DNA of 64,000 nucleotides, taken from contig JBNASD010000001.1 of assembly GCA_049720225.1 (NCBI GenBank), positions 396,815 through 460,814 on the forward strand. The letters are read 5' to 3'. This DNA is from Microgenomates group bacterium (GTDB taxonomy: Bacteria > Patescibacteriota > Microgenomatia > PFEM01 > JBNASD01). Positions 8,171-62,324 of this stretch are shown in pieces. A program made the translations under genes and the position numbers. The notes under the pieces are model-generated. The model did not search any database and was not told where the DNA came from. It was given only the letters and a program-made list of their open reading frames with translations. How positions within the stretch are numbered: the stretch's first letter is position 1; the number at the start of each line of letters is the position of its first letter.

Positions 8171-8684
8171 CTAGGCTAACAAAAATGATCCCATAACTCC
8201 CCACCAAGATAAAATTCCCAATAAAGCTTTAGCGGGCACAGTAATCAAAATTATTACCGGAATAGTAAAAGTCAAGATTATTCTAATCCCTTTGTTATAA
8301 ATATCAGTAGGAAACCGCGCCATACTTGTTAAATCGCGATAAACCCAAACTAAATGGTCAATTTCTGTAGTTAGAACACAAACGGAACAAAAAAATAAAT
8401 GAAAAGCAAAAGCCAAAATTAAGGCATTAAAAAATAAAATCAAAAAAATAAAAAATTGCAAATATTAAAAAAGCCAAAATAAATAAAATATACCCATAAA
8501 GGAACCAAAATAATTCCATTAAAATATCAGTCCACCCAAAAATAGGTCTAAAAAAAGAAAGTAAGGGCTTTAATAAATCTAAATCGTAATTACCAGAAAC
8601 AACTAATGACCGCAATTGATAAACGCCACGAAATAAAAATTGCACAGTAATATCAACTAAGCAAAAAAGCAATTCCCACAACAT
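8171..8684 (-). pseudogene. Polytopic membrane protein remnant split by a frameshift (two overlapping ORFs; possibly an ABC-2-type permease C-terminal part)
   Basis: ORFs 8427-8684 and 8171-8461 overlap in different frames and both are very hydrophobic. The total is only ~170 aa, which suggests N-terminal truncation. Confidence 0.35.
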
Positions 8685-8724
8685 AAGCTAACATTAGTAA
8701 TTTTTGCCAATTGCCAATATTTTT

Positions 8725-9738
8725 TCATACGCCTCTTTTAAAATTTAACCATTTTTCTACTCCATAAGTAAACCAATAAAAAGGAGAGATAATTAAATCC
8801 TGAGTGGGTAAAAGAGTAAATTCTCTTCCTCCAAATCCGGTTTTAAATAAAGTTAATCCCTGCCAACTTTTTGGTGTTCTTTTTTCTTGATAAATCCCCC
8901 AAAAATTATAAGTTTGGCAACCTCTTTTTTTTGCTTCTTTAATCGCTTCCCATTGAAGAAGATAACTTGCTGGATATGAAGTATGAATTGAAGCTCCTTG
9001 ATGATAAAAAGCTCCCTTTTTGGTAAAAATTATCAAAGCACCAGCTAAATATTTTCCTTGCAAAGATACCAAAAACCATTGACAGCTATTGGTTTTTTTA
9101 AAAACTTCAAATTCCTTCTTTAAATATTCAAAGGAAAAAGGCACAAATTTTTCGCGTTTTGCAGTTTCTAAATATAATTTCCAAAAAATTTCTAAACCTA
9201 CCAAATCCTCTCTTTTTTCTACTTTTAATTCGCTTTTTAAAGCTTTTCTTATTAAATATCGTGTTGTTTTTCGCATTTCTTTTAATAATTCTTCTTCATT
9301 TTTATTTAGATTCAATACCCACATCTTTTCTGCATGCATATAAATAGGTGCTTGGCGAAAACCTAATTCCTGATAAAATTCTTTTACCTTTAAGTTGTCT
9401 TCCTGCCAAGGAGCAATTCTTATAAACCAAAAATTATTTTTTATCGCAATTTTTTTAATTTTTTTAAGAAGAAAAACCAATGGTTTTTTTAACGAAGAGA
9501 AATCATTTAAAAAAATTGGCCCATGGGGAATAAATAAAAATTTTCCTCTTTTTATTTTTTGTTTAATTATTAATACCAAAATTAAAGGAATATTTTTTTC
9601 AAATAACCCTAATCTTAAAATTGAATTTCCCATTCTTTTTTGAAATTCTCCCCATTCCCAAGAATGCAAAAAAGAAAAATTACCTTGGTTGAAAAATTTT
9701 TTCCAAATTAATGAAGAATTTATTTTTCTAATTTCCAT
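8725..9738 (-). CDS. FemAB-family peptidyl/aminoacyl transferase (peptidoglycan interpeptide-bridge formation; GNAT-like)
   Basis: The N-terminal ...FSFLHSWEWGEFQKRMG... is the FemAB/FemX signature. The two-lobed length (337 aa) fits. Confidence 0.6.
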   Translation of the reverse strand: MEIRKINSSLIWKKFFNQGNFSFLHSWEWGEFQKRMGNSILRLGLFEKNIPLILVLIIKQKIKRGKFLFIPHGPIFLNDFSSLKKPLVFLLKKIKKIAIKNNFWFIRIAPWQEDNLKVKEFYQELGFRQAPIYMHAEKMWVLNLNKNEEELLKEMRKTTRYLIRKALKSELKVEKREDLVGLEIFWKLYLETAKREKFVPFSFEYLKKEFEVFKKTNSCQWFLVSLQGKYLAGALIIFTKKGAFYHQGASIHTSYPASYLLQWEAIKEAKKRGCQTYNFWGIYQEKRTPKSWQGLTLFKTGFGGREFTLLPTQDLIISPFYWFTYGVEKWLNFKRGV

Positions 9739-10924
9739 TTATTAATTTAACAATTTTTTCTGCTTCTTTTAAGGAAATATTAGTTGGCAAATTAATTATT
9801 TCTCGACAGATCTTCTCTGCTTGAGGACAACTTTTTGGTTCATATTTCATTTTTTTTAAATTCACCCCTTTTGGGGCTACAATTTGATTATACCAAGTAC
9901 CTAAAAAAATTCCTTTTTTAGCTAACTTTCTTTTAATTTCTTCCGGATTTTTTACTCGTAATGGGTAGCGAAGTAAACCATTTTCGCTCTGATAATTCAA
10001 ACCAAAACTTTGGTTGTAAAATTCAGTAATCACTTGTCTTTTTTTTTCTATTTCTTTTTTTCTTTTTAATTGAGAAAGCAAAAGTTTTCCTAAAACTAGA
10101 GGATAAATTTTATCAAAATCAAAATTATAAAATCCCCTTTTTTCTTTTTCTGTTACTTCAGGAATTAAAAAGCCAATTTTCTTTGCCCAGTAATGAATTA
10201 ATTTTCCTAAACTTATTTTATAAGTTTTTTTAATTAAAACAGCTAGGGGTTTATAAAAAAGAATCTTAAAAATAGTTATTTTTGAAGGAAAAGAAAGACT
10301 CTTTTCTTCTTCTTTCAATCTTTTGCCAATTTTTTTATCACTCGTAACAATAGCTCCGCCAAAAACGGAAGAAAAAACTTTAGACCGACCAAAAGAAAAT
10401 AAAAAATTACCATTTTTGGTAGAAGAAAAAATTTTTTGATTAAATCCATGGGCAAGATCCTCGGCTAACAAAAGACCATTTTTTTCGGCAAAAGAAAGAA
10501 TTTTTTCTCGATAAAGGGGAGTCAAACCAAAAGTATGTTGAAGAAGAATAACTTTTGTTTTGGGAGTAATTTTTTTTAATAAATCAAAAAAATCCATTGA
10601 GTAAGTTTTATTTTCAATATCAACATAAATTGGTTTCAAATTATTCGTCAATATTGGCAAAACTACTGCTTCACAGGTAAATCCTTGAATTGCTACTTCA
10701 CTTTTCGGCGGGAAGTTTAAACTTTTAAGAAAATGAAACCAGGCACTTCGGCCAGTAAAGAAAGGGAAAAAATCAGAATTAATTTTTAAACCAAGTCTAT
10801 TTAAAATTTCTTTTTTAGTTTTTAAATCAAGAGGTTTTTGCCAATTCCAAGGCTGAAAAATTAAAGAAAAAGAAATCAACGCGTCTTTAAAATTTTCATT
10901 AGGAGCAAAATTAAGATTAATCAT
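9728..10924 (-). CDS. DegT/DnrJ/EryC1/StrS-family PLP-dependent sugar aminotransferase
   Basis: FTCEAVVLP, LLQHTFG and AEDLAHGF blocks. The PLP-lysine motif SFGRSKVFSSVFGGAIVTSD matches SFxxxK...GEGGxxxTnD. Confidence 0.65.
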   Translation of the reverse strand: MINLNFAPNENFKDALISFSLIFQPWNWQKPLDLKTKKEILNRLGLKINSDFFPFFTGRSAWFHFLKSLNFPPKSEVAIQGFTCEAVVLPILTNNLKPIYVDIENKTYSMDFFDLLKKITPKTKVILLQHTFGLTPLYREKILSFAEKNGLLLAEDLAHGFNQKIFSSTKNGNFLFSFGRSKVFSSVFGGAIVTSDKKIGKRLKEEEKSLSFPSKITIFKILFYKPLAVLIKKTYKISLGKLIHYWAKKIGFLIPEVTEKEKRGFYNFDFDKIYPLVLGKLLLSQLKRKKEIEKKRQVITEFYNQSFGLNYQSENGLLRYPLRVKNPEEIKRKLAKKGIFLGTWYNQIVAPKGVNLKKMKYEPKSCPQAEKICREIINLPTNISLKEAEKIVKLINGN

Positions 10925-12669: not shown

Positions 12670-14322
12670 ATGAAGAAAAAACTCAATAATGTATTGAGAA
12701 TTTTAGGTGTTGGTAACTTAACTAATCAAGTTTTTATTTTTAAATTCTATCCTTCTAAAAAGAAAAATTTTTTCCAAATCACAAGCAGTAAAGATGGTTT
12801 TGATTTTAAACTCTTCAAAAAATGGGGAGAAATTATCAAACAAAATGGTCAACAGGAAAAAATCGTCAATTGCCAAGACTTTTATCTTAGTAAGATTAAA
12901 AATTCTTTTTTTCTTACTTACAAACTTAAAGAAAATAAAACCAATCAACTTTGTGGAGCAATTTGGAGTGGTTTCTCTCATTGGCAAAAAACAGGAAAAA
13001 TAGACAAAATTAAAGAAAGTGGGGTAGTTGTTCCCTCTTACACTTATCAAAAACATTACCTTCTTTATTTTGGTGAAAAAGCAATTAATCTTGCGGTCTC
13101 TTCAGATTTAATCAAATGGCAAATCTTACCAAAACCCATTTTTTCCTTAACCAAAAAACTTCTTAATAAAGGTTTCCGTTTAAAAATAGGAGGAGTGGTC
13201 CCAGAAAAAAAGAAACTTCTTTTGTTATATTTTCTTTTTCAGAATGGAAAAAATCCCAAAAATTACGCTATCGAGGGAATCATTATCAACAAGAATAATC
13301 CCTTTAAATTATTTAAAAAACTAACTTCTCCACTTTGGAAACAGAAAAATGAATGGAAAAAAGAAACCGTTTTTCCTGTGGGAATTTTGAAAGTTAAAAA
13401 CTATTTTGTCGCCTATTGGCAAAATTCAAAAGGTATTTTATATGCTTATCCTTTTTATTTTTCTTTTCCGGAAAAATCCTATTTTCAAAAAAGAGCCTTT
13501 TCTTTTTTGGAAAAATTTTCTCAAAACCCCATTTTAAAACCAAAAAGAGAACATCAATGGGAATCTAAAGCGGTATTCAATACCGCCGCCGTCAAAATAA
13601 AAAACAAAATCCATTTCATTTATCGGGCAGTAGGAGAAAATGACATTTCTGTTTGGGGATATGCCGCGAGTAAAAATGGGTTTGAAATTAATGAAAAATC
13701 GGAAAAGCCAATTTTTACCTCCTGTTTATTAAAAAGAAAAAGTTATTTTCCTTTTCAACTTGGTTTACCTTTTTATCTTTCAGGAGTAGGTTTCGGCGAA
13801 GGTAAATATGCCATTTTTCATAGTCTTTCCCCAGAAATTTTAATAGATTATTTTGACGATTTAAATTTTGACGGAAAAACTTTTATCAGAAGCTATTATG
13901 ACGGAAAACCTAAAAAGGCAATTTGGGAAGAAAGAATAAGAGGAGTAGGTCCTCCTCCTTTGAAAACCCCTGAGGGTTGGTTAGTTTTTTATCATGCAAT
14001 GGATAAACAAAACTCTAATCTTTATAAAATAGGAGCAATGATTTTAGATCTAAACCAACCGACAAAAATTTTATATCGCGCTCCTTTACCAGTTTTAGAA
14101 CCAAGCGAAATTTATGAAAATGAAGGATTAAAACCAGGAATTGTTTATAGTTGTGGAGCGGTCATTTTTCGAAAAAAAATTTTCCTTTATTATGGAGGGG
14201 CAGATACAGTTATTTGCGTTGCTTCCGCCCCTTTAAATATTTTTTTAAACCAATTAAAATCTAATGAAACACCGAATTTAAATCTTAATTTTAGAACTAT
14301 TAATTTAAATGATAGAAATTAA
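12670..14322 (+). CDS. Tandem two-domain GH130-like (DUF377, 5-bladed beta-propeller) protein; degenerate, the GCEDPR catalytic motif is absent from both domains
   Basis: The second domain has NPILKPKREHQWESKAVFNTAAV...IHFIYRAVGENDISVWGYAASKNG and the C-terminal GPPPLKTPEGWLVFYHA...YSCGAV...LYYGGADTVICVA blocks shared with the next gene. No GCEDPR motif. Confidence 0.6.
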   Translation: MKKKLNNVLRILGVGNLTNQVFIFKFYPSKKKNFFQITSSKDGFDFKLFKKWGEIIKQNGQQEKIVNCQDFYLSKIKNSFFLTYKLKENKTNQLCGAIWSGFSHWQKTGKIDKIKESGVVVPSYTYQKHYLLYFGEKAINLAVSSDLIKWQILPKPIFSLTKKLLNKGFRLKIGGVVPEKKKLLLLYFLFQNGKNPKNYAIEGIIINKNNPFKLFKKLTSPLWKQKNEWKKETVFPVGILKVKNYFVAYWQNSKGILYAYPFYFSFPEKSYFQKRAFSFLEKFSQNPILKPKREHQWESKAVFNTAAVKIKNKIHFIYRAVGENDISVWGYAASKNGFEINEKSEKPIFTSCLLKRKSYFPFQLGLPFYLSGVGFGEGKYAIFHSLSPEILIDYFDDLNFDGKTFIRSYYDGKPKKAIWEERIRGVGPPPLKTPEGWLVFYHAMDKQNSNLYKIGAMILDLNQPTKILYRAPLPVLEPSEIYENEGLKPGIVYSCGAVIFRKKIFLYYGGADTVICVASAPLNIFLNQLKSNETPNLNLNFRTINLNDRN

Positions 14323-16219
14323 ACGACACCCTAAAAATCCAATTTTAACCCCTGACGAAACTCAATTTTGGGAGGCCGAAGCTACTTTCAATGGAAGTAT
14401 TGCTCCCGATGACAACTTTTATCATTTTGTTTATCGAGCAGTTTCTTTTCCTCATTTTTATTTTGATAAAGAAATCTCTTTATCAACAATTGGCTACGCA
14501 AAAACTAAAGACGGAGTTAAATTTTTTGATCGTCAGCCACTTATTATGCCTGAATATCCCTGGGAACAATTTGGATGTGAAGACCCCCGAATTACTAAAT
14601 TTGAAGGAAAATATTGGATTTTTTATACTGCTTTGAGTAATTTTCCTCCTTCTCCTCAGGACATAAAAATAGGAGTAGCAATTACTTCTGATTTTAAAAA
14701 ATTAAAAAAACATCAAGTTACTGATTTTAATTCTAAAGCAATGGCATTATTTCCCGAAAGAATTAATGGAAAAATTGTGGGAATTTTAACAGTTAACACT
14801 GATTTACCCCCAGCAAAGATTGCTTTAGTTTTTTTTGATAACGAAGAGCAAATTTGGTCAAAAGAATTTTGGCATAATTGGCTTTCTTCATTAAGTAATT
14901 TTATTCTTCCTCTCAAAAGAAATCCCTCTGATCAAGTAGAAGTAGGGGCTCCTCCTTTAAAAACACCTAAAGGGTGGTTGTTAATCTATTCCCACATTAA
15001 AAATTATCTTTCTCCTCCGCCTGTTTTTGGAATCGAAGCGGTACTATTAGATTTGGAAAATCCTCTTAAAATCTTAGGGAGGACTCTTCAACCACTTTTG
15101 ATTCCACTTCAAGAATATGAACTTTATGGTCGTGTTCCTAATGTCATTTTTCCCTCAGGAGCAGTAATTAAAAAGGAAAAAGTTTATCTTTATTATGGTG
15201 CCGCTGACACTTCTTGTTGTTTAGCAGAAATTCCTCTCAAAAGATTACTTACTCTCCTTACTACTAAAAAACATCCCCCTTCTCCTCCTTTTCGTTTAGA
15301 AAAATATTTGGGAAATCCTATTCTTACTCCTAAAAAAGAAAATAAATGGGAATCAAAACAAACTTTTAATCCAGGGGTAATTTTTGAAGGCGGAAGAATT
15401 CACCTTCTTTATCGAGCGGTTGGCGAAGACAATACTTCAGTATTAGGATATGCCTCTAGTAAAGATGGCTTTTATTTTGATGAAAGATTAACCAAACCAG
15501 TTTATCTACCTCGAGAAGAGTTTGAGAAAAAAACAAGCCCAGAAGTAGCTTCAGGATGTGAAGATCCGCGGTTAACTAAGATTGGTGACCGAATTTATAT
15601 GCTTTATACCGCTTTTGATGGGAAAAATCCCTGGAAGGTAGCAATGACTTCTATTAAGGTAAAAGATTTTTTGGCGAAAAATTGGCAATGGGAAAAACCA
15701 ATTATTATTTCTCATCCAGAAAGAAGCGATAAAAACGCTTGTTTGTTAGAAGAAAAAATTAATAATCAATATGTTTTTTTTCACCGGATTGGTCATTGTA
15801 TTTGGATTGATTTTGTAGATGATTTAGAATTCAAAAATGGTCGATTTCTTGGAGGAAAAATAATTTTATGGCCTAGAAAAGGAAAGTGGGATAGTCATAA
15901 GGTAGAAATCGCCGGTCCCCCTTTAAAAACAAAAAAAGGTTGGCTGTTAATATATCATGGTCTTTCTTTAGAGGATAAAAAATATCGATTAGGAGCGGTT
16001 CTTTTAGAGCTTAAAAATCCGGAAAAAGTTATTAGTCAATTAGACGAACCTATTTTAGAACCAGAAGAAGAATATGAAAAAAATGGAGTAAGACCAGGAA
16101 CTGTTTTTTCCTGCGGGGCGGTAATTTTAGGAGAAAAAATTTTGGTATATTATGGGGCCGGTGACCAAACAATTGCGGTAGCTTCAGTAAATTTAAATTC
16201 CCTTCTTAACCGCTTTTAA
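14309..16219 (+). CDS. Tandem two-domain GH130-family glycoside phosphorylase/hydrolase-like protein (both domains keep GCEDPR)
   Basis: Domain 1 has NPILTPDETQFWEAEATFNGS...YRAV...FGCEDPRITKFEGKYWIFYTA. Domain 2 has NPILTPKKENKWESKQTFNPGVIFEGGRIHLLYRAVGEDN...SGCEDPRLTKIGDRIYMLYTA. Both are hallmark GH130 blocks. Its start overlaps the previous gene's stop. Confidence 0.7.
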   Translation: MIEIKRHPKNPILTPDETQFWEAEATFNGSIAPDDNFYHFVYRAVSFPHFYFDKEISLSTIGYAKTKDGVKFFDRQPLIMPEYPWEQFGCEDPRITKFEGKYWIFYTALSNFPPSPQDIKIGVAITSDFKKLKKHQVTDFNSKAMALFPERINGKIVGILTVNTDLPPAKIALVFFDNEEQIWSKEFWHNWLSSLSNFILPLKRNPSDQVEVGAPPLKTPKGWLLIYSHIKNYLSPPPVFGIEAVLLDLENPLKILGRTLQPLLIPLQEYELYGRVPNVIFPSGAVIKKEKVYLYYGAADTSCCLAEIPLKRLLTLLTTKKHPPSPPFRLEKYLGNPILTPKKENKWESKQTFNPGVIFEGGRIHLLYRAVGEDNTSVLGYASSKDGFYFDERLTKPVYLPREEFEKKTSPEVASGCEDPRLTKIGDRIYMLYTAFDGKNPWKVAMTSIKVKDFLAKNWQWEKPIIISHPERSDKNACLLEEKINNQYVFFHRIGHCIWIDFVDDLEFKNGRFLGGKIILWPRKGKWDSHKVEIAGPPLKTKKGWLLIYHGLSLEDKKYRLGAVLLELKNPEKVISQLDEPILEPEEEYEKNGVRPGTVFSCGAVILGEKILVYYGAGDQTIAVASVNLNSLLNRF

Positions 16220-47299: not shown

Positions 47300-47678
47300 C
47301 CTGCCTCCTTTCTTCTAAAAATTTTTCTAATATTAAAGCTGCTGCAAAAGCATCTTCTTTTTTTCTTCTTTTTTTCCTTCTTATCCCTGCTGCTATCATT
47401 TTAGCAATCGCCTCTTTACTCGTCAAGGTTTCATCAACATAAAAAATAGGTAGTTTAGTTTTCTTGGCAATTTTTCTCGCAAATTCTAAAACGTCTTTCT
47501 TTAATTTTTCCGAGGGAATTCCAATTACAATCTCTTTTATCTCTTCTTCTTGACAAATTTTTAAAATTTCTGAAAACAATTCTTTTTCCGATACTACCTT
47601 GTAGGGATAAATTACTTCTCCACTTCCAATGGCTAGCCCTATTTTTTTTAAACCAAAATCAATTCCCAAGATGTTCAT
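47292..47678 (-). CDS. ruvX: Holliday-junction resolvase-like RuvX/YqgF
   Basis: MNILGIDFGLKKIGLAIGSG... is the RNase H-like N-terminal motif. Confidence 0.8.
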   Translation of the reverse strand: MNILGIDFGLKKIGLAIGSGEVIYPYKVVSEKELFSEILKICQEEEIKEIVIGIPSEKLKKDVLEFARKIAKKTKLPIFYVDETLTSKEAIAKMIAAGIRRKKRRKKEDAFAAALILEKFLEERRQGV

Positions 47679-48357
47679 AAAGTTGGGCGGGAACCAATTT
47701 TGCTTTAACTACTAACCTTCTTAAATAAGTTCCTGGAGGAACGCAAGTAATAAGACTTAAATACTCTCCGTCATAAGTTTGTTCTAAAACAGAAACGTCT
47801 TCGGGAGAAACTTCGACTAATTCAAAAACTTCATAAAAATAACGAATTCCGTCGAAGTCTAAAATAATTACATCACCTTTTTTTAAAGTTGGCAAAGTAG
47901 AAAAGATGGTTTTGTAATTTTTAGGATTAAAAAATTGCGGCAACACTGAATGACCAAAAATTACTACATTTCCGTATTCTCCCGGCAACGCAGTTCCCGG
48001 ATATTGGATTAAACTTTGAGAAAGATCTTCTCCACCAATTTTTACCACCGCATTCTTAATTCCCAATTTGGGAATTGATAAGTTATAATCGGTAATTTTA
48101 CTTGGGCGGGGAGTTAGGGCCGGAGAAGTAATAAACCAAGAGTGAGGATCATTAAAATTAGGAGAAAAAGAACTTTCCACCGGCGAAATAAAAGCTACTT
48201 TTTTTTCGCGATGAGTTGTTAATTGATACCACAAAATAGGAAAAATCGCATTGATAATCAAAAATAATCCTCCTAGCAAAAAAATCCATGGTAAAAAATT
48301 AAGAAATTTTTTTCTTTCTTTTTCTTTGGGAGTATTTTTAACATAACAATAAAGCAT
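47659..48357 (-). CDS. Sortase-family transpeptidase (N-terminal membrane anchor)
   Basis: IPKLGIKNAVV, active-site His in VVIFGHSV, Cys in LSLITCVPP, downstream Arg (RRLVVKA). Confidence 0.7.
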   Translation of the reverse strand: MLYCYVKNTPKEKERKKFLNFLPWIFLLGGLFLIINAIFPILWYQLTTHREKKVAFISPVESSFSPNFNDPHSWFITSPALTPRPSKITDYNLSIPKLGIKNAVVKIGGEDLSQSLIQYPGTALPGEYGNVVIFGHSVLPQFFNPKNYKTIFSTLPTLKKGDVIILDFDGIRYFYEVFELVEVSPEDVSVLEQTYDGEYLSLITCVPPGTYLRRLVVKAKLVPAQLYEHLGN

Positions 48358-48358
48358 C

Positions 48359-50590
48359 TTATTTTCTTTTCACCTCCACAGTAATATTTTTAACTAATTG
48401 GGGAAATGTCAAAAATTTTGCCGGAAGTTGAGGAGTTATCTCTATTTGATAAGAATTTACCTTCGATAAATTATTTAAATAAGTCTGACCAGCAGATAAA
48501 GATTTACCTCTTAAATCTTTTTTAATTGCTTCTAAATCAAACGTAGGAAATAGATAAGCTTTAAATTTAACTTTGAAATTGGCTGTTCCGTCTTTATTTA
48601 CTTTTTCTAATCTAAAATCAACTTCTTTCTCTTCCGGTTTATATTGATAACCTTCGGGAATAAGTTGCGAAATCTTTTTTTCTAAAACCTTATTAAAATC
48701 CGCATTAGAATAAGTTAAAACTTTAAACTCTACTTCTAAGTTAAGTTTTATTTCTTCTGCCTCTTCATCAGTTTCTCTGTCAAAAATTTCTTTTTTAATT
48801 GTATAACTTAAAGAATCTTTAATTACTTCTTTATCAGGAGAAATTTTTTCTTTAAATTTTTCCCAAATTTCCTCTTTAAGAGATTCGAGAATTTCTTTTT
48901 TTAATTCTTCTTTGTCTTTTTTCGCCACTACTTGAATTTCTCGACTAGTTCCTCCACTAAACGCCTCTTCATTTTTAGCCACAAAGTCTGATTTTGAATA
49001 ATTATTAATATTAAACTCTGTTCCAGCAGCTAAATTTCCCTCCGCCCCTATTTTTACTGCCTTTACCTTTACCTTTGCTTTTCCTGGAACCTTCACATAA
49101 TCTGCCCCGACGCTTTCAGAAGCAACCGTCACCTCTTCTTCTAAAGTAAATTTCAATCCATCAGGACCAATAATCTCCGTTCCTTTTTCAAACTTTTTTT
49201 CTTTAGCGGTGCGATTATAGATTACCACCTCTCCTGAAGCGGGTTCTCCTACTACTTTGACACCAGTAGTTTCTTTTTTTCCTTCTTTGGACAAAACTAA
49301 AACTATCTCTTCTCCTGGTAAAATTAATTTTTCTTCGTCGGGAGATTTTATCTGAGGATCAACGGTAACTCCCAAATCCTTTTCTAAAATCTCTGGTTTA
49401 ACCCACAAAATAATTTTTGCTTTAGGAATAAACCACCAATAAGCAAATAACCCCCCTCCCAAAAGAAAAAGTAATAAAAATAAAACCAAAAGTATCGACC
49501 TTTTTCTTCCTTTTAAAAGAAGAATTTTTTCTACTGAATTTTTAATTATATTTCCCACCTTAAGGAAAAGGGGAAAAGCCATTTCTTTTAGGTTTTTTAT
49601 CTTTTCTAAAGATGGCTTCATCTTTTCTGTTTCTTGAGAAGATTCCTCTGTTGATACAACAGTTGGCGGAATTATCTCTTCTTCTTTAAGAGTAATATCT
49701 TCTCCCTTTACAAAACCAAAATTTTCTTCTTCTTTAACTGAAGGGGAAATTTCCTCAATCTTTTCTTCTTCCTCTAAAACTTCCGATTCTTCAGAAATTT
49801 CCTCTTTGGTTGGTATTTTCGCTTCCTCTTTCAAAATAACTCCTTTTACTTCCCCTATCTCTTTACCTCCTGCTAATACTAAAGAGAGTAAAGAAAACTC
49901 AAAAGGAAGAATCTCTACTTTTGGCAGATGAAAAAAGTTAATTTCCAATTCTTCCCAAGAAATCTCTTCTATCTGTCTTTTTTCTTCTTCTAAATTTTCT
50001 TGATTATAAAGAATAATTCTTGCAGGTAAAACTTCGCTTTTATCAAATCGAGAAAATCCCTCAATTAAATCTTCTTTTAAGTTTTCACTCCGAACTAATT
50101 CTTCGGTAGCAATAAATTTTCCTACTTTAATTAAACTTAAAAATATTTTTTTTGAAGTAAAATTAATTAGAATTGCGCTTAAAGGAATTCCTTCTTTGAT
50201 TTTAAAATGATGAGCAATTGCCTCAGGAGTAATTACAAATCCTAATGCCTCAAAGTTCATCTCTCGACAAATTGTTTTTAAGATTGCCATCTTTTCCTCT
50301 TTTACTTCATTACTTTCTTTAAGCCAACTAAAAGGAATACCAAAAATTATTTTTTGAGAAGCGATATTCTCTTGAGGAGGAAGAGATTGATCAATAGCAG
50401 TAATTATTTCTTCATCATTTTCAAAAAAAACCATTTTCCCTACTTTTACCACTTCTACTATTCCTTCAGAAGAAATCCTCCACCAGGCAGAGTTGACAAA
50501 TTCATCTTCAATTAAAACCGCTAAATAAGTTTCCGGTGGTCTTTTTTCCTCAAAAGATTTAATTTTTTTAAAAAAATTACTGATTTCCAT
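48359..50590 (-). CDS. Large bitopic hypothetical protein: ~240-aa N-terminal cytoplasmic domain, ~120-aa Glu-rich linker, single TM helix, ~370-aa Lys-rich extracytoplasmic region
   Basis: TM helix SILLVLFLLLFLLGGGLFAYWWFIP near residue 350. The acidic block EEISEESEVLEEEEKIEEISPSVKEEE precedes it. No family recognised and no C-terminal LPXTG sorting signal. Confidence 0.5.
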   Translation of the reverse strand: MEISNFFKKIKSFEEKRPPETYLAVLIEDEFVNSAWWRISSEGIVEVVKVGKMVFFENDEEIITAIDQSLPPQENIASQKIIFGIPFSWLKESNEVKEEKMAILKTICREMNFEALGFVITPEAIAHHFKIKEGIPLSAILINFTSKKIFLSLIKVGKFIATEELVRSENLKEDLIEGFSRFDKSEVLPARIILYNQENLEEEKRQIEEISWEELEINFFHLPKVEILPFEFSLLSLVLAGGKEIGEVKGVILKEEAKIPTKEEISEESEVLEEEEKIEEISPSVKEEENFGFVKGEDITLKEEEIIPPTVVSTEESSQETEKMKPSLEKIKNLKEMAFPLFLKVGNIIKNSVEKILLLKGRKRSILLVLFLLLFLLGGGLFAYWWFIPKAKIILWVKPEILEKDLGVTVDPQIKSPDEEKLILPGEEIVLVLSKEGKKETTGVKVVGEPASGEVVIYNRTAKEKKFEKGTEIIGPDGLKFTLEEEVTVASESVGADYVKVPGKAKVKVKAVKIGAEGNLAAGTEFNINNYSKSDFVAKNEEAFSGGTSREIQVVAKKDKEELKKEILESLKEEIWEKFKEKISPDKEVIKDSLSYTIKKEIFDRETDEEAEEIKLNLEVEFKVLTYSNADFNKVLEKKISQLIPEGYQYKPEEKEVDFRLEKVNKDGTANFKVKFKAYLFPTFDLEAIKKDLRGKSLSAGQTYLNNLSKVNSYQIEITPQLPAKFLTFPQLVKNITVEVKRK

Positions 50591-55818: not shown

Positions 55819-57477
55819 TTAAACCTCCATTATCAAAACGACAATCATCGGTTTTCTTCCTGTTTTTTCAAAGAAAAATCTTTCAATCTCCTCTTCAATT
55901 TTTTGACGAAGGAAATAAACATCCTTTCCTTGATTCTTTTTAATTAAACTAATAATTTTTTGTTTTCCTTGATTAATTAGAGGAAGATTTTTCTTTATAT
56001 AAACAAAACCCCGACTAATAATTTCCGGTTCTCCAATCAACCGTTTAGTCTCTTGATTTAAAAGAACAAAAATCACCGCAATTCCCTCAGTGGCTAAAAT
56101 TTTTCTGTCTCTTAAAACTATCTCTCCTACATCACCAACACCATAAGCATCAACAAATACCTTTTTAGGGGTAAATTTTTGGGAAATTTTTACTTGATTA
56201 TTTGGAAAAAATTCAACAAATTCTTCTTTATCAGGTAAAAGAATTTGTTTTTCTCTAAATCCCTCCTTCAAAGCTAATCTTTTATAAGCAACCATATGGC
56301 GAAAATTCCCTCCAATAGGAATAACATATTGAGGGTTAACCATTTTTAACAACTTTGCTAAATCCTGCTGAAAACCATGACCGGAAACATGAACGCCACT
56401 ATGAATATCCTGATAAACAACCTCTCCTCCCAAACGATAAATATTGTCAATTAATCGATAAATTGCTGCTTCATTTCCAGGAATATAATCGGTAGAAAAA
56501 ATTACTTTATCTCCAGGTTCGATTTTTACTTCCTCTTCCTCTCCGGAAACAATTTTATCCAAAGCAGAACCTAATTGACCTTGACTGCCCGCTACCAATA
56601 AAGTCAATTTTTCAGGCGGATATTTCTTAATTTCTTTTTTAGAAAGAAAAATACTTTCTTTAAAATTAAGATATTTAAGTTGCCGGGCTAGCTTTACATT
56701 TTCTTTTACCGAACGACCCAATAAAACTATTTTTCTCCCATAATCTAAGGAAGCCTCAATTGCTTGTTTAAGACGAGAAATATTGGAAGAAAAAGTAGTT
56801 ACTAAAAACTTTCCTTGGCAATTTTCCATTTCTTCCAAAAACATTTTTTTGAGTTTGTTTTCGGGAGGAGTAAAACCTGCTACCTCTGCTCTTAAACAAT
56901 CGGAAAGAAGACAAAGGACTCCTTTTTGACCCACTTTTTTAATTTTATCTTGAGACGTAGCTTGACCAATAACAGGAGTTAAATCAAGTTTAAAATCAGC
57001 CGCATGATAAACTATTCCCAGTGGTGTATTAATTACTAAATGATAAGTATCAGGAATTGAATGAGTAACGCTTATAAATTCTAAAAAAAATTCTCCTAAA
57101 CTAATTTTTGTTTTTTCATCAAACTCTCGAAAATCTGCCAACACTCCAAATTCTTTACATTTTAATTTACTTAATGCAATTGCCCATTTAGGTCCATAAA
57201 CAGGAATTCTTTTAGAAAACTGAGGTAAAATATAAGGAAGAGCCCCAATGTGATCTTCATGTCCATGAGAAAGAATTATTCCCCGAATTTTTTCTTCTTT
57301 ATTTTTCAAATAACTAATATCAGGAATAATTAAATCAACGCCCGTAATATCTTCTTCCGGAAAACCAACCCCACAATCAACCACTAAAATATCTTTTGGG
57401 GTTTCGTAAACAAACATATTTTGGGTTACTTCCCCAAATCCACCTAAAGAAATTATTTTTAATGATTTTTCTTCCAC
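55819..57477 (-). CDS. rnj: Ribonuclease J (metallo-beta-lactamase + beta-CASP)
   Basis: HGHEDHIGALPYILPQ plus beta-CASP motifs. Confidence 0.85.
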   Translation of the reverse strand: MEEKSLKIISLGGFGEVTQNMFVYETPKDILVVDCGVGFPEEDITGVDLIIPDISYLKNKEEKIRGIILSHGHEDHIGALPYILPQFSKRIPVYGPKWAIALSKLKCKEFGVLADFREFDEKTKISLGEFFLEFISVTHSIPDTYHLVINTPLGIVYHAADFKLDLTPVIGQATSQDKIKKVGQKGVLCLLSDCLRAEVAGFTPPENKLKKMFLEEMENCQGKFLVTTFSSNISRLKQAIEASLDYGRKIVLLGRSVKENVKLARQLKYLNFKESIFLSKKEIKKYPPEKLTLLVAGSQGQLGSALDKIVSGEEEEVKIEPGDKVIFSTDYIPGNEAAIYRLIDNIYRLGGEVVYQDIHSGVHVSGHGFQQDLAKLLKMVNPQYVIPIGGNFRHMVAYKRLALKEGFREKQILLPDKEEFVEFFPNNQVKISQKFTPKKVFVDAYGVGDVGEIVLRDRKILATEGIAVIFVLLNQETKRLIGEPEIISRGFVYIKKNLPLINQGKQKIISLIKKNQGKDVYFLRQKIEEEIERFFFEKTGRKPMIVVLIMEV

Positions 57478-57478
57478 T

Positions 57479-58063
57479 TTAATTAATTAAACTAAATTGT
57501 TTATTTAAAAAAACACCCAATTTTAAGAAATCTTTTTTTAAATCTTCCTTTATTTTACCATTTCTTAATCCAGCGGCTGGATGATAAAAAGGAACAAGAA
57601 TCCTTTTTTTATTTTCCCAAAAAATAACTTTAAATTGGCCATGAATCTGAGAAATTAATCTGCCTGGTAAAAATTTATTTAAAGAAAATCGACCAAGAGT
57701 AATAATAATTTTTGGATCAATTATCTTAAGTTGTTCATCTAAAAAAAGTTCGCAGGCTTTAATTTCTTCTGGTAATGGATCTCGATTAGCTGGCGGTCGG
57801 TGTTTAATAATATTAGTAATAAAAACATCTTCTCTTTTAACTTTAATAGAAGATAACAATTCATCTAAAAACTTTCCCGCTTTTCCCACAAAAGGTTCTC
57901 CTTTTTGATCTTCCCAATAACCTGGGGCTTCACCAATTAAAACGATTTTACTTAAAGAGTTTCCTTTTCCTGGAACCGCTTTTTTGGCGGTTTTATACAA
58001 CAAACATCTCCGACAAGAATTGATTTTTTGGGCAATTATTTTAAGTTTTTCTTCTTTAGTCAC
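57479..58063 (-). CDS. Uracil-DNA glycosylase, family 4 (Fe-S)
   Basis: CRRCLL...GEAPGYWEDQKGEPFVGKAGKFLDELL...HPAA. Confidence 0.75.
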   Translation of the reverse strand: MTKEEKLKIIAQKINSCRRCLLYKTAKKAVPGKGNSLSKIVLIGEAPGYWEDQKGEPFVGKAGKFLDELLSSIKVKREDVFITNIIKHRPPANRDPLPEEIKACELFLDEQLKIIDPKIIITLGRFSLNKFLPGRLISQIHGQFKVIFWENKKRILVPFYHPAAGLRNGKIKEDLKKDFLKLGVFLNKQFSLIN

Positions 58064-58073
58064 TTTTAAAAAT

Positions 58074-59132
58074 TTACCAGCTAGGAAGGAATTCTTTTAT
58101 ATTTTCCGCTGTAAGATGAAATTTTTCCCCTTTTTTTTCAACAATCATTTTAGCAATTTTTCGACAAATTCCATTAATTGTTCTTTCTAAAGTCCGTATT
58201 CCCGCATCATAACCTAAAGGACGAACTATTTTAGGCCAAACCCCATCATCGATTATTAACCAATCTTTTTCTAAACCCATTTCTTCCATCGTTTTAGGCA
58301 AAATATAATTTTTACCAATAACAATTTTTTCCTCATCACTATAAGAAGGCATTTGGATTATTTCTAATCTATCTAAAACGGCAATTGAAATATTAGTGGT
58401 GTTATTACAAGTAGCAATAAACATCACCTCGGAAAGATCAAAAGGATAATCAATAAAATGATCCCGAAAGGCAAAGTTTTGTTCTGGATCCAAAAGCTCT
58501 ACTAAAACTCCCATAATACTTGCTCTTCCTTCTTCGGTAACTCGATCAATTTCGTCTAACAAAATTACCGGATTTTTGGTTCCTGCTCTTCTTAAAGCTT
58601 TTATTACTAATCCTGGCTCGGCATCCGGCCTTAACCGTGATTGACCTCTTAAATCAAGTGGATCTCCCATTCCTCCAAAGGGAATTCGGGCAAATTTTCT
58701 TCCCAATGCCTCAGCAATTGAATAGGCTAATGTTGTTTTTCCGGTTCCTACTAAACCAACAAAACACAAAATTGGTGCTTTATATTTTTCCTCTTGTTTT
58801 CTTTTTCTTTTAAGAATTAATACTGCTAAATATTCCAAAATTCTTTCTTTTACTTCTTTTAAACCATAATGGTTTTTTTCTAAAACTTTTTGGGCAAAAT
58901 CTAAATCTAAAATATCTTCACTTTTCTTTTCCCAAGGTAAAGAAGTAATCCAATCAAGATAATAAGAAGTTCTTTCGTATTCGGTTGAATATTCACCAAA
59001 ACGAGCCATTCTTGATAACCGAGAAATCATTCCTTCCGCTTCTTCTTTTAAATCAAGAGGTAAAACGCTTTTTTCTAATTTTTGTTTTAATTTCTCAATT
59101 TCTTCGAGAAGTTGGGCAGAATTATTAGTCAT
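58074..59132 (-). CDS. Lon-like AAA+ ATPase module only (no N-terminal LON domain, no S16 peptidase domain)
   Basis: It aligns by eye to Lon from the coiled-coil/YLDWxxxLPW region (TSYYLDWITSLPWEKK; DHYGL equivalent NHYGLKEVKERILEYLAV) through Walker A GLVGTGKTT, Walker B ILLDEIDRV, sensor ATCNN, and the alpha-subdomain end ...NIKEFLPSW*. It is flanked tightly by pnp and the UDG gene. Confidence 0.65.
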   Translation of the reverse strand: MTNNSAQLLEEIEKLKQKLEKSVLPLDLKEEAEGMISRLSRMARFGEYSTEYERTSYYLDWITSLPWEKKSEDILDLDFAQKVLEKNHYGLKEVKERILEYLAVLILKRKRKQEEKYKAPILCFVGLVGTGKTTLAYSIAEALGRKFARIPFGGMGDPLDLRGQSRLRPDAEPGLVIKALRRAGTKNPVILLDEIDRVTEEGRASIMGVLVELLDPEQNFAFRDHFIDYPFDLSEVMFIATCNNTTNISIAVLDRLEIIQMPSYSDEEKIVIGKNYILPKTMEEMGLEKDWLIIDDGVWPKIVRPLGYDAGIRTLERTINGICRKIAKMIVEKKGEKFHLTAENIKEFLPSW

Positions 59133-59134
59133 TT

Positions 59135-61213
59135 TTATCTCCTTTTTGGAGGAAATTTCATTGAAAGATTAATCCTTCCTAATTCGTCTATTTCTATTAC
59201 TCTTACCTTTACTTTTTGTCCTACCTTTACTAACTTTGCCGGATTAGAAACAAAACCGGCTGCCATCTGAGAAACATGAACTAATCCTTCCTTTCCCGGT
59301 AAAATTTCTACAAAAACACCAAACGGTTGAATTCTTTTAACGGTTCCAATAAAGACATCACCCACTTTTGCCTCCCGAATTAATCCTTTTATCCAAGCAA
59401 CCGCTTTGTCAACTGCCTGTTGATCTAAAGCAGAAATATTTACTTTCCCTTCATCATCAATTTCCACATTTGCCCCGGTTTCACTGATAATTCGGCGAAT
59501 TGTTTTTCCTCCAGGCCCAATTATCTCTCCAATTTTTTCTTCAGGAACTTTAATTACTTCTACTTTAGGAGCAAATTTGGAAATTTGAAAGCGAGGAGCA
59601 GGTAAAACTTCTTTCATTTTTTCTAAGATAAAAAGACGTCCTTCTTTTGCTTGAATTAATGCTTCTGCTAAAAGTTTTTCATCAAAATCTAAACTTTTTA
59701 CATCCAATTGAACCGCGGTAATTCCTTTTTCTGTCCCTGCAACTTTAAAATCCATATCGCCATTAAAATCCTCCAAGCCAATAATATCGGAAAGAATAAG
59801 TTTTTCAATCTTTCCTAAGGCAATTCCGGCGACAGGAGCTTTGATGGGAACCCCGGCATCCATTAAGGAAAGAGTAGAACCACAAACCGACGCCATCGAA
59901 GTAGATCCATTGGAAGACATCACCTCGGAAACAACCCGAATGGTATAAGGAAACTTTTCTTCGGAAGGAATTACCGGTTCTAACGCTTTTTCGGCTAATG
60001 CTCCGTGACCAATTTCTCGCCGGGAAGGCCAACCAATTTTCCCTGTCTCTCCCACTGAATAAGGAGGCATATAATAGTGATGAATATAGCGTTTTGTCTC
60101 TTCTCCTTCCATACTCTCAATTAACTGTTCTAACGAAGGAGAACCTAAAGTGGTTACTGTAAGAACATGGGTATTTCCCCGCCGAAAAATTGCTGATCCG
60201 TGAGTTCGCGGTAAAACTCCTACCTCAATTTCAATTGGTCTTATTTCTTTTAATCCTCTTCCGTCAATTCTCTTTTTCTCTTTTAAGACCTTTTCTCTGA
60301 TAATTTCTTTTACTACTTCATCTACCGCCAATGATAAAAAGTTTTCTTTTTCCCCAGAATATTTTTCTTCCAAAACCTTTTTAATTTCTTCTAGAAAAGC
60401 TAATGATTCTTTATCCTTTCCTGCCTGAAGAAGAATTTCTTTAATTTTCTTTCCGTAATCTTCTTTGATTTCCGCTACTAATTTTTTATCAGGAATTAAA
60501 GGAGAAAAAACTTGCTTTTTCTTTCCTAATTTTTTTCTTATTTCTTCAATAAGATGAATAATTTTTTCTCCTTCTTTTTTAGCAAAACTCACCGCCTGAA
60601 GAAAAACTTCTTCCGGAATTTCTTTTCCTCCTCCCTCTAACATTACTACCGCTTTTTTATCAAAAGCGACCACTAAATCTAATTCCGAATATTCTAAATC
60701 TTGGTAGGTAGGATTAGCGATTAAAAAACCTTTTCCGTTTTTAGGAATAAAACCAACCCGTAAAGCTCCAATTGGTCCTTCCCAAGGAATATCAGAAATC
60801 GCTAAAGCAGCGGAAGTCGCACAAATGGCCGGAATATCAGGATTATTCTCCGCATCAACTGACAAAACAGTAATCATTACTTGGACCTCATTACGATATC
60901 CTTTAGGAAAAAGAGGGCGAATTGAACGATCTACCAAACGGGCAGTTAAAACCGCCTCATCAGAAGGTCTTCCTTCTCTTTTAACCCAACGAGAACCCTT
61001 AATTTTTCCCCCGGCATATAACCTTTCAATATATTCTACCTGAAGAGGAAAATAATCAACTTCTTCATTACTACTTCCTGAAACTACCGTTGATAAAACT
61101 ACAGTGTCTCCTAAACGACCCAAAACGGAAGCATTAGCTTGCGGGGCGAGTCGACCAACCTCCAAAATTAACTGCTTACCACCGATTTCAATTGAAAAAC
61201 TTGCGGGTTTCAC
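59135..61213 (-). CDS. pnp: Polyribonucleotide nucleotidyltransferase (PNPase)
   Basis: Two RNase PH domains, a KH domain and a C-terminal S1 domain. It sits downstream of rpsO. Confidence 0.9.
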
Positions 61214-61529: not shown

Positions 61530-62324
61530 TCATATAGAACCATTTCCTTTATAAATTTTAGGAGTAAACCAATCAGAAGGTATTTGTTCTTCTTTCTTTT
61601 TCTCTTCAATAACTTTCTCTTCTTTTTCTTCCCTTCTTCCTCCTCTTCTTCCTCCATTTTTTAAACAAAAAACTGCTGCTTCAAAAGCATCCACGCCTGC
61701 TTTAAGACCAAAATTTTCCGTTCCTTTTTCCAAACCATATAAAAGATTAGTGGCAATATCTTCATCAATTGGTAAATTATATAAAGCAATAAATTTTGTG
61801 ATTAATGAAGACCAACAAGAATAGGAAAAATCTTTCAATCTTAACGACTTGACATTTTCTTTTTTAAATAATTGGGAATAATTTTGAGAAATTTCCTCCA
61901 ACTCGTCAATGTTATTAACATCCATTAATAAAATTAAATCCGCTTCTACATCGGTTGAGGAAAAATTTAATTCCTCAGGTTTCAAAGGAGGATATCCTTC
62001 CTTAGGCCGAATAATTAAATCAAAAGTCTCTTCTCCCTCATTGTAGCTTACTTTTTCAATTATTTTTTTAGGTAAAGAAATAATCAATCCTCTTCCTTCG
62101 GGTTTATTTTTAATTTTATCTACCCCTACTAAATGAGAAAACCCAACAGTAATTGGGGAATAAGAAATTAAAGAAACCTCTTTTTTGTTTTTTTTTAAAG
62201 AAAGATATAAAGAAAGAGCCGCTGCCAATCTATCTTCTTCTAATTCTTTTGGCAAGAAAATAAAAATGGTTTGGGCAGAATTTATTAAAGAATGAAGTTG
62301 AGTTAAATCCTGCAAAAAATCCAT
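61530..62324 (-). CDS. DHH/DHHA1-fold (NrnA-like) protein with substituted catalytic motifs; probably a non-catalytic paralog
   Basis: It occupies the nrnA-like slot between infB and rpsO. Motif I has PKELEEDRLAAALSL instead of HxNPDGDAxGS. Motif III has LMDVNN instead of DHH. The C-terminus has a Gly/Arg-rich tail GGRRGGRRE. Confidence 0.4.
   Translation of the reverse strand: MDFLQDLTQLHSLINSAQTIFIFLPKELEEDRLAAALSLYLSLKKNKKEVSLISYSPITVGFSHLVGVDKIKNKPEGRGLIISLPKKIIEKVSYNEGEETFDLIIRPKEGYPPLKPEELNFSSTDVEADLILLMDVNNIDELEEISQNYSQLFKKENVKSLRLKDFSYSCWSSLITKFIALYNLPIDEDIATNLLYGLEKGTENFGLKAGVDAFEAAVFCLKNGGRRGGRREEKEEKVIEEKKKEEQIPSDWFTPKIYKGNGSI

Follow-up and report, generated by a model that had tools for sequence, protein, structure and literature searches.

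To our knowledge, all described Lon subfamilies (A, B, C and BA) carry an ATPase and a peptidase on one chain. In LonA, an N-terminal substrate-binding domain of ~240 aa with a long coiled coil precedes a three-helix bundle (NTD3H), an AAA+ large subdomain and a Lon-specific lid, and these are followed by an S16 Ser-Lys peptidase domain. A Lon-protease-like domain is still present in BrxL, ComM and RadA/Sms, all of which have DNA as their substrate. Recruitment of Lon-type modules to ATP-dependent non-proteolytic functions, namely in BrxL (BREX), ComM and RadA/Sms, is described in the available portions of PMC10164562 and PMC11612176, and the available portion of PMC3391209 presents LonC of Meiothermus as a Lon-like protease without ATP-powered unfolding. 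Here we describe a gene, referred to as Lon-AAA, from a 64,000-nucleotide stretch of the genome of a Microgenomates group bacterium (assembly GCA_049720225.1, contig JBNASD010000001.1, positions 396,815 to 460,814). The whole of this stretch, called the window below, has a GC content of ~33% and consists almost entirely of a minus-strand array of housekeeping genes. The Lon-AAA product is a Lon-derived AAA+ protein that lacks the recognition domain, the peptidase and the gripping loops of Lon, without being a categorically new system. Our literature searches retrieved no description of a protease-less Lon ATPase, nor of Lon in Microgenomates or Patescibacteria.

The NTD3H, the AAA+ large subdomain and the Lon-specific lid are common to LonA and Lon-AAA, with 36-47% identity over the shared region (40% to E. 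coli Lon) and the same Walker A/B, sensor-1, Arg-finger, sensor-2 and LLDPEQN motifs, while the N-terminal substrate-binding domain with its coiled coil and the S16 peptidase domain are present in LonA only. Pfam matches in the Lon-AAA protein were confined to AAA (residues 122-260) and Lon_lid (283-336, E=3e-12), and neither LON_substr_bdg (PF02190) nor Lon_C (PF05362) matched it even at E<=1. The TIGR00763 'lon' profile was matched over positions 253-571 of 795 only, scoring 345.5 bits against a cut-off of 608.05, and the score for NF008053 was 281 against a cut-off of 891. Searches of the protein against Pfam and NCBIfam returned no model specific to the Lon-AAA family. When the PDB was searched with phmmer, residues 10-349 aligned to residues 249-579 of E. 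coli Lon (E ~1e-80), and the same range matched the B. subtilis, Y. pestis, Thermus, Meiothermus and human Lon proteins (E ~1e-80). The protein ends at a position equivalent to E. coli Lon ~581, where the linker to the peptidase domain starts. Full-length E. coli Lon (NC_000913.3), compared by tblastn with all six frames of the window, matched through its residues 249-579 at 58086-59105 only; the Lon N-domain (E. coli residues 1-248) and the peptidase gave no significant match in any frame. Pfam scans of 20 larger ORFs (open reading frames) of the window, which include RecA, RNase Y, AlaRS, a sortase, MiaA-/MiaB-like proteins and GH130 enzymes, likewise revealed no peptidase partner.

These results bear out most of what a first-pass annotation, made from the sequence alone, had claimed for this gene. 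Its description of a Lon match that extends only from the end of the coiled coil through the AAA+ module is shared by Pfam, TIGR00763, PDB phmmer and tblastn, and the stop that it placed at the peptidase-domain boundary coincides with the end of the alignment at E. coli ~579-581. The domain complement put forward for checking against Pfam is AAA and Lon_lid alone, with no Lon_C at the C-terminus; the Walker A/B, sensor and lid elements regarded as intact are seen in the alignment to E. coli Lon and to the family; and the tblastn and Pfam results for the window agree with the statement that it holds no S16 partner. It had further argued that the missing domains are not hidden in other frames. 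The stop codon of pnp (TAA, 59135-59137) lies 2 nt before the Lon-AAA ATG and the GTG start of the UDG gene (58063) lies 10 nt past the Lon-AAA TAA stop, so that hidden Lon domains have no room between these abutting genes, and the tblastn comparison was negative in all frames. The GGAG tetranucleotide upstream of Lon-AAA (Table 1) is its putative ribosome-binding site and, as such, would indicate an independent translation start, although translation is probably coupled to that of pnp.

The residues required for ATPase function are conserved, whereas those that grip the substrate in LonA are replaced. In an alignment of 119 family members with E. coli Lon, the equivalents of E. coli K362/T363, D423/E424, N473, R484 and R542 were invariant or nearly so (the sensor-1 Asn in 118/119, the Arg finger in 119/119), and they were also fixed in the wider clade described below. 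The LLDPEQN motif with E. coli E447 (E217 in Lon-AAA) was retained, as were Y294 and W297 of the NTD3H together with their partners in the pre-sensor-1 (PS1) hairpin, Y456 in the form of F and E458 in that of D. The roles of N473, of the trans-acting R484 and of the inter-subunit 'acidic bridge' E447 have been described (PMC7239648). Lon-AAA thus contains the Walker A Lys, Walker B Asp-Glu, sensor-1 Asn, Arg finger and sensor-2 Arg of the AAA+ superfamily (HCLR clade), and the conservation of R255 and E217 suggests that it hydrolyses ATP and forms hexamers.

The pore loops present a different picture. Pore-loop 1 of Lon-AAA reads RGQSRLRPDAEPG, compared with RGHRRTYIGSMPG in E. coli Lon. The position of Y398 is occupied by R in 101 of the 119 family members (H in 8, Q in 7 and Y in 1), I399 is replaced by P in 100/119 and G400 by D in 118/119, and R395 is changed to S. 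In pore-loop 2, the position of E. coli M432 is Gly in 112/119 members, and this Gly falls on Trp431 in a direct alignment to Meiothermus Lon (MtaLon). By contrast, all of the 46 full-length LonA representatives used for comparison have Y at 398 (46/46) and V or I at 399 (46/46), with F, Y, W or an aliphatic residue at 432, so that the Tyr-Ile/Val pair and hydrophobic or aromatic loop 2 of LonA correspond to Arg-Pro and Gly in Lon-AAA. In Lon structures Y398 and I399 intercalate with the substrate backbone (PMC7239648), and Tyr397 and Trp431 of Meiothermus Lon contact the substrate and are needed for degradation of Ig2 (bioRxiv 10.1101/2020.04.29.068361). The charge of the module differs as well, from basic in E. 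coli Lon (residues 247-584, isoelectric point (pI) 9.1, net +7) to acidic in Lon-AAA (family median pI 6.2, net -2), and the charge of pore-loop 1 is +1 in Lon-AAA, with a conserved Asp and Glu, versus +3 in Lon. A change of NTD3H Met284 to an invariant Tyr was dropped from the comparison, since the result depends on the alignment used. An argument from the DNA-binding lysines of E. coli Lon was dropped as well, the literature having yielded nothing usable on them. Out of five features that distinguish LonA, Lon-AAA therefore shows only the Lon-type AAA+ module and lacks the other four (N-domain, S16 domain, pore-loop pair and equivalog score). It is likewise distinct from LonB, LonC and LonBA, as it has no Lon_C domain and its AAA+ module aligns to that of LonA without a large insertion of the transmembrane or Lon-insertion kind.

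The gene is widespread and well conserved. The best 120 protein matches were 346-381 aa long, apart from one truncated entry of 305 aa, were 69-81% identical to the Lon-AAA protein and had the same AAA plus Lon_lid architecture. A scan of one genome per GTDB species showed that at least 577 species genomes encode a relative; the best 80 of these belong to Microgenomates lineages, with names such as Shapiro-, Gottesman-, Woese-, Curtiss-, Ames-, Roizman- and Levybacteria. The complete chromosomes CP011214.1 (Woesebacteria GW2011_GWF1_31_35) and OZ246419.1 are among these 80, and the complete genome OZ246397.1 likewise carries the gene. Across 1.4 Mb of sequence from 84 related loci, tblastn matches to E. 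coli Lon were restricted to its residues ~240-580, and no fragment of the Lon N-domain or peptidase was found within +-10 kb of the gene. Most Microgenomates loci share one arrangement, in which infB is followed by an unannotated ORF and then by rpsO, pnp, Lon-AAA, (udg), rnj and ftsK, udg being variable. The median identity to the window copy was 61.8% for Lon-AAA, compared with 55.9% for PNPase, 55.5% for FtsK, 51.9% for UDG, 46.4% for IF-2 and 43.5% for RNase J in the same loci, and Lon-AAA was more conserved than PNPase in 64/65 loci, although its identity is somewhat inflated because the loci were chosen by similarity to the Lon-AAA protein. Purifying selection on the gene is strong. Judged from these comparisons of sequence, Lon-AAA is a functional, housekeeping-grade gene descended from LonA and not a fragment. 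The proposal of the first-pass annotation of a functional Lon-derived unfoldase or chaperone holds in part: the occurrence of a relative in at least 577 genomes and the invariant catalytic residues support a functional, Lon-derived gene that is not a pseudogene, while the term 'unfoldase' is unsupported, the pore loops being replaced.

To look beyond the Microgenomates family, 1.84 billion 50%-identity representatives were searched exhaustively, and 3,505 of them matched at E<=1e-30. Among these, canonical Lons of ~800 aa were 41-47% identical to the Lon-AAA protein, and shorter proteins of ~350-670 aa, two of which are labelled Candidatus Dojkabacteria, were 43-58% identical; all ten of the shorter proteins scanned with Pfam (10/10) contained AAA and Lon_lid only. 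A rough neighbour-joining tree built from the AAA+ modules placed every protease-less protein, Lon-AAA included, in a single clade separate from the 46 full-length LonAs. Neither the Lon N-domain nor the peptidase domain was found in any sampled member of this clade. At residue 398 its members have R, H, Q, N, S, E or D or, in four representatives, Phe, and position 432 is small or polar in most, while the D-A-E-P-G flank is fixed and gives the clade a pore-loop 1 signature of ...(P/L)DAEPG. With an NTD3H and AAA+ module only, (P/L)DAEPG and intact ATPase motifs, Lon-AAA has the distinguishing features of this unnamed Microgenomates/Dojkabacteria clade. The additional length of some members consists of low-complexity sequence rich in Q/P/S/N, placed N-terminally, C-terminally or between the NTD3H and the AAA+ core, and these extensions show no similarity to the Lon N or peptidase domains. 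They were N-terminal in P0142 and P0272 (330-370 aa), C-terminal in P0129, P0140, P0149 and P0165 (200 aa) and internal in P0144, P0145 and P0151, and those of P0142 and P0272 contain near-perfect repeats of QPQVQPVQFGQQ. A further group of longer proteins (P0121-P0141, ~900-1700 aa) has two to four Lon-type AAA+ stretches, with the pore loop GHNRTW(K/R) in a subgroup, and may represent tandem Lon-AAA architectures or Lons with insertions.

The gene context of distant members varied. The order rpsO-pnp...Lon-AAA...ftsK was loosely retained in one locus (L088), adjacency to pnp was lost in two other sub-lineages (L086 and L087), and the contexts other than that of L088 placed the gene beside L25 and an FtsA-like gene or beside Metallophos-family and Peptidase_M23 genes. 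No S16-type peptidase was found nearby in three distant clade contexts. A Baseplate_J-like ORF was noted near the Lon-AAA gene of L087.

The AlphaFold2 model of the protein (mean pLDDT, the predicted local distance difference test score, 79.5) consists of three N-terminal helices, an alpha/beta core and a helical lid. The first of these parts, the NTD3H, corresponds to helices alpha8-alpha10 of the LonA HI(CC) domain, with Y58 and W61 conserved as the equivalents of E. coli Y294 and W297; the role of the NTD3H in Lon has been described previously (PMC7239648, PMC6722904). The pre-sensor-1 region aligns without gaps (DHFIDYPFDLS versus DHYLEVDYDLS in E. coli Lon), and the model shows it as a helix at low confidence (pLDDT <50, residues 219-228). 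The top Foldseek matches in the PDB were LONP1 and bacterial Lon chains with template modelling (TM) scores of 0.7-0.8, including 6N2I (TMq 0.77, TMt 0.80), which ranks among the best by the score normalised to target length. This last structure, E. coli Lon 235-584 obtained by limited proteolysis, has near-identical boundaries and comprises the last three HI(CC) helices together with the NB and H domains. Whereas 6N2I is a laboratory protease fragment with canonical pore loops, Lon-AAA is the product of a natural, selected gene with derived loops, and it is essentially the natural counterpart of that fragment. The terminal aromatic residue of the FLPxW tail is conserved in the Microgenomates family, though neither across the wider clade nor in Dojkabacteria-type members, and a docking role for the tail is speculation. 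The positions of these features are listed in Table 1.

Table 1. Positions in the window of the Lon-AAA gene, the elements of its product and its immediate neighbours
Feature	Position	Strand	Remarks
Lon-AAA gene, complete	58074-59132	-	352 aa; ATG start; stop TAA 58074-58076
Putative GGAG Shine-Dalgarno, within pnp 3' end	59139-59142	-	6 nt 5' of ATG; sequence read
NTD3H three-helix bundle, residues ~5-63	58944-59120	-	AlphaFold2 helices 5-21, 26-45, 49-63; aligns to E. coli Lon 249-305
AAA+ large (alpha/beta, nucleotide-binding) subdomain, residues ~92-262	58347-58859	-	Pfam AAA, AlphaFold2, Foldseek
Walker A GLVGTGKT, residues 126-133	58734-58757	-	K132 and T133 invariant
Remodelled pore-loop 1 RGQSRLRPDAEPG, residues 162-174	58611-58649	-	R168, P169, D170 at E. 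coli Y398, I399, G400
Walker B ILLDEIDR, residues 189-197	58542-58568	-	D193 and E194 invariant
Pore-loop 2 region VTEEGRASIMG, residues 198-208	58509-58541	-	G202 = Meiothermus Trp431 / E. coli M432
Sensor-1 N244 (58401-58403) and trans-acting Arg finger R255 (58368-58370)	58368-58403	-	family alignment
Lon-type lid (small alpha-helical), residues 283-336	58125-58286	-	Pfam Lon_lid
Sensor-2 R313	58194-58196	-	invariant
C-terminal tail FLPSW-COOH, residues 348-352	58077-58091	-	alignment
pnp (polynucleotide phosphorylase), upstream neighbour	59135-61213	-	adjacency conserved in most Microgenomates loci
UDG-superfamily protein (Pfam UDG), downstream neighbour	57479-58063	-	only in some related loci

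The reading that we favour, tentatively and with a probability of roughly 0.45, is that Lon-AAA is an oligomeric, non-proteolytic and non-threading ATP-driven remodeller or switch that acts on a specific client. Its subunits would most likely assemble into a ring or spiral oligomer and hydrolyse ATP co-operatively, because the equivalents of the trans-acting R484 and of E447 are conserved and are meaningful only with subunit contact. Processive threading and unfolding of polypeptides would have been lost, since a charged loop with a Pro (S-R-L-R-P-D-A-E) is conserved where LonA has its aromatic and hydrophobic paddles. ATP-driven rigid-body motions might serve to bind, remodel or release the client at the axial face, and a threading-independent role as a chaperone or remodeller is possible. 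A precedent for oligomerisation is the E. coli Lon(235-584) fragment, whose crystal packing produces a hexamer that is helical and open (PMC6722904).

Several observations weigh against this reading. The peptidase ring is the main hexamerisation element in LonA, and Lon-AAA would have to oligomerise without such a ring. Four clade representatives (P0120, P0140, P0142 and P0149) have Phe at position 398, so that some lineages may still grip polypeptides, and the Arg-Pro loop itself might provide a non-canonical grip. That the remodelled loop is so strongly conserved shows its importance without saying what it binds, and the gene context, being inherited housekeeping synteny, cannot discriminate between clients. 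In addition, pore-loop 1 (residues 154-170) and the pre-sensor-1 hairpin (219-228) are low-confidence regions of the AlphaFold2 model.

The most credible of the alternatives, though still unlikely, is that Lon-AAA works by itself as an unfoldase or chaperone, in the manner of ClpX or ClpB alone, and still passes polypeptides through the axial channel while leaving them undegraded. Chaperone-like activity of Lon independent of proteolysis has been described and would fit such a protein, as would the intact AAA+ machinery, the coupling residues kept between the NTD3H and the PS1 hairpin (Y294, W297, Y456 as F and E458 as D) and the presence of Phe at the aromatic position of pore-loop 1 in some clade members. 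The replacements of Tyr-Ile by Arg-Pro and of Trp/Met by Gly, however, affect both positions needed for substrate contact or degradation in LonA, and the N-domain that recruits substrates is absent.

It is very unlikely that Lon-AAA is the ATPase half of a two-component protease and docks on a separate, free S16 domain or on another self-compartmentalised protease, for which it might use the peptidase-side face of Lon and the aromatic FLPxW tail. ClpXP, HslUV and the proteasome as a rule have their ATPase and peptidase on separate chains, and the Lon-AAA protein does end at the peptidase linker, with a terminal aromatic conserved in the Microgenomates family. Yet Dojkabacteria-type members do not share this residue, neither Lon_C nor another peptidase was found within +-10 kb in the 84 loci or in the 64-kb window, the three distant contexts have no S16-type peptidase, and a feeder ATPase would still need the threading pore loops that are lost here.

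More doubtful again is a repurposing for nucleic acids or ribonucleoproteins, for example as an ATPase associated with the RNA degradosome or the ribosome that acts with PNPase and RNase J. The position of Lon-AAA between pnp and rnj in most Microgenomates loci, an order loosely kept in L088, and the change from Tyr to Arg in pore-loop 1 are in line with this idea, as is the Lon-like BrxL, which according to the available portion of PMC10164562 binds DNA in its central chamber. The family, however, is mildly acidic (pI 6.2, net -2) and its pore-loop 1 less positive than that of Lon, and the adjacency to pnp is lost in L086 and L087. Adjacency would in any case be weak evidence in CPR (candidate phyla radiation) genomes with their long co-directional housekeeping arrays, and we read it as inherited synteny because it is kept within Microgenomates but not in other sub-lineages. 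Lon-AAA also differs from BrxL, ComM and RadA/Sms in being acidic and in having no Lon-protease-like domain. PADLOC gave no BrxL match for the protein and only weak, generic AAA matches (DolB 1.5e-8, IetA, TRIP13), and the gene lies among core housekeeping genes and not in a defence context of the BrxL type.

That the gene is a decaying lon pseudogene, or that an assembly or frameshift artefact split a normal lon, can be dismissed: although a frameshift-split lon does occur in a long-read assembly (L089), the ~350-aa architecture recurs with the same boundaries in hundreds of assemblies produced independently by different projects, the genes on either side are complete and closely spaced, no N-domain or peptidase remnants are left in any frame, and purifying selection is strong.

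We also searched for full-length Lon in CPR lineages. The closest full-length LonA among the representatives was a protein of 822 aa labelled Candidatus Falkowbacteria (P0185), which was 47% identical to the Lon-AAA protein and had a canonical pore loop. It is an orphan, its next relatives being ~45% identical and, where named, from Syntrophales, Desulfobacterales or Proteobacteria. It was the only clearly CPR-labelled full-length LonA seen and possibly reflects horizontal acquisition or mis-binning. A search with the Lon_C domain of a CPR LonA yielded mostly short fragments on short contigs, the few named ones being Desulfobacterales or myxobacterial, and no CPR Lon besides P0185 was recovered with either this domain or full-length P0185. 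These results hint that canonical Lon may be rare in CPR. Two stand-alone Lon_C proteins of ~216-220 aa on long contigs, considered as 'split Lon' candidates, were rejected (contexts not CPR-like, ENA assemblies), and at least one Lon_C candidate is an ordinary lon broken by a frameshift, in which an ORF with LON_substr_bdg and AAA abuts the Lon_C ORF. In L089, apparently a long-read ENA assembly, lon is split by an apparent frameshift into an upstream ORF with LON_substr_bdg and AAA (8673-10004) and a Lon_C ORF (10001-10651); a lon split in this way can mimic a 'split Lon'.

It is distinctly unlikely, at this stage, that Lon-AAA is the only Lon descendant in Microgenomates and Dojkabacteria, serving as an essential core ATPase with a new way of handling clients through an Arg-Pro-Asp-Ala-Glu axial loop and with neither proteolysis nor threading; as part of such a scheme, it might help to assemble or turn over ribosomal or RNA-processing complexes. 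If true, the main protease for quality control would have become a different kind of machine throughout an entire radiation of bacteria. CPR/Patescibacteria genomes are very small, and should these lineages indeed have no S16 peptidase, their quality-control network would differ from that of textbook bacteria. In comparison with LonC, as presented in the available portion of its report, Lon-AAA forms a mirror image: LonC keeps the peptidase without ATP-powered unfolding, whereas Lon-AAA keeps the ATPase residues without the peptidase, and both are natural Lon derivatives that have broken the link between proteolysis and unfolding driven by the ATPase. Lon-AAA represents a natural experiment on what a Lon motor does without proteolysis and without threading.

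These findings bear on current annotation. Many family members are labelled 'ATP-dependent Lon protease' by JGI, which is a misannotation; 'AAA family ATPase', as used by NCBI, is safer and is the name given to an entry identical to the Lon-AAA protein ('MAG: AAA family ATPase [Microgenomates group bacterium]', P0001, with MAG for metagenome-assembled genome). Many MAG records that contain the gene are titled 'uncultured Gammaproteobacteria', 'Pseudomonadales', 'Bathyarchaeia archaeon', 'Clostridia bacterium' or 'Nevskiaceae'. The taxonomic labels of the loci so titled (L008, L011, L012, L015, L021, L025 and others; protein P0036) are probably wrong, and most fetched loci with adequate flanks show Microgenomates synteny despite such titles.

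A number of other genes of the window were noted in passing. The ORF between infB and rpsO (61530-62324, minus strand, 264 aa) has no Pfam match and a conserved position, but it is only ~31% identical across loci and evolves far faster than its neighbours. The RNase J-like ORF (55819-57477, minus strand) encodes 552 aa from a GTG start, compared with 447-457 aa for the orthologues in L002 and L004; its N-terminus may be over-extended by the mechanical ORF call or may represent an extension specific to this copy. An ORF of 743 aa (48359-50590, minus strand), with only a weak Baseplate_J-like match, adjoins the sortase gene (47659-48357, minus strand), and a pair of a large ORF and a sortase after AlaRS was also present in L002 and L004. 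On the strand opposite to the housekeeping array, a tandem pair of GH130-family genes resembling mannooligosaccharide phosphorylases (12670-14322 and 14309-16219, both plus strand) was observed, each with a long N-terminal part that has no Pfam match.

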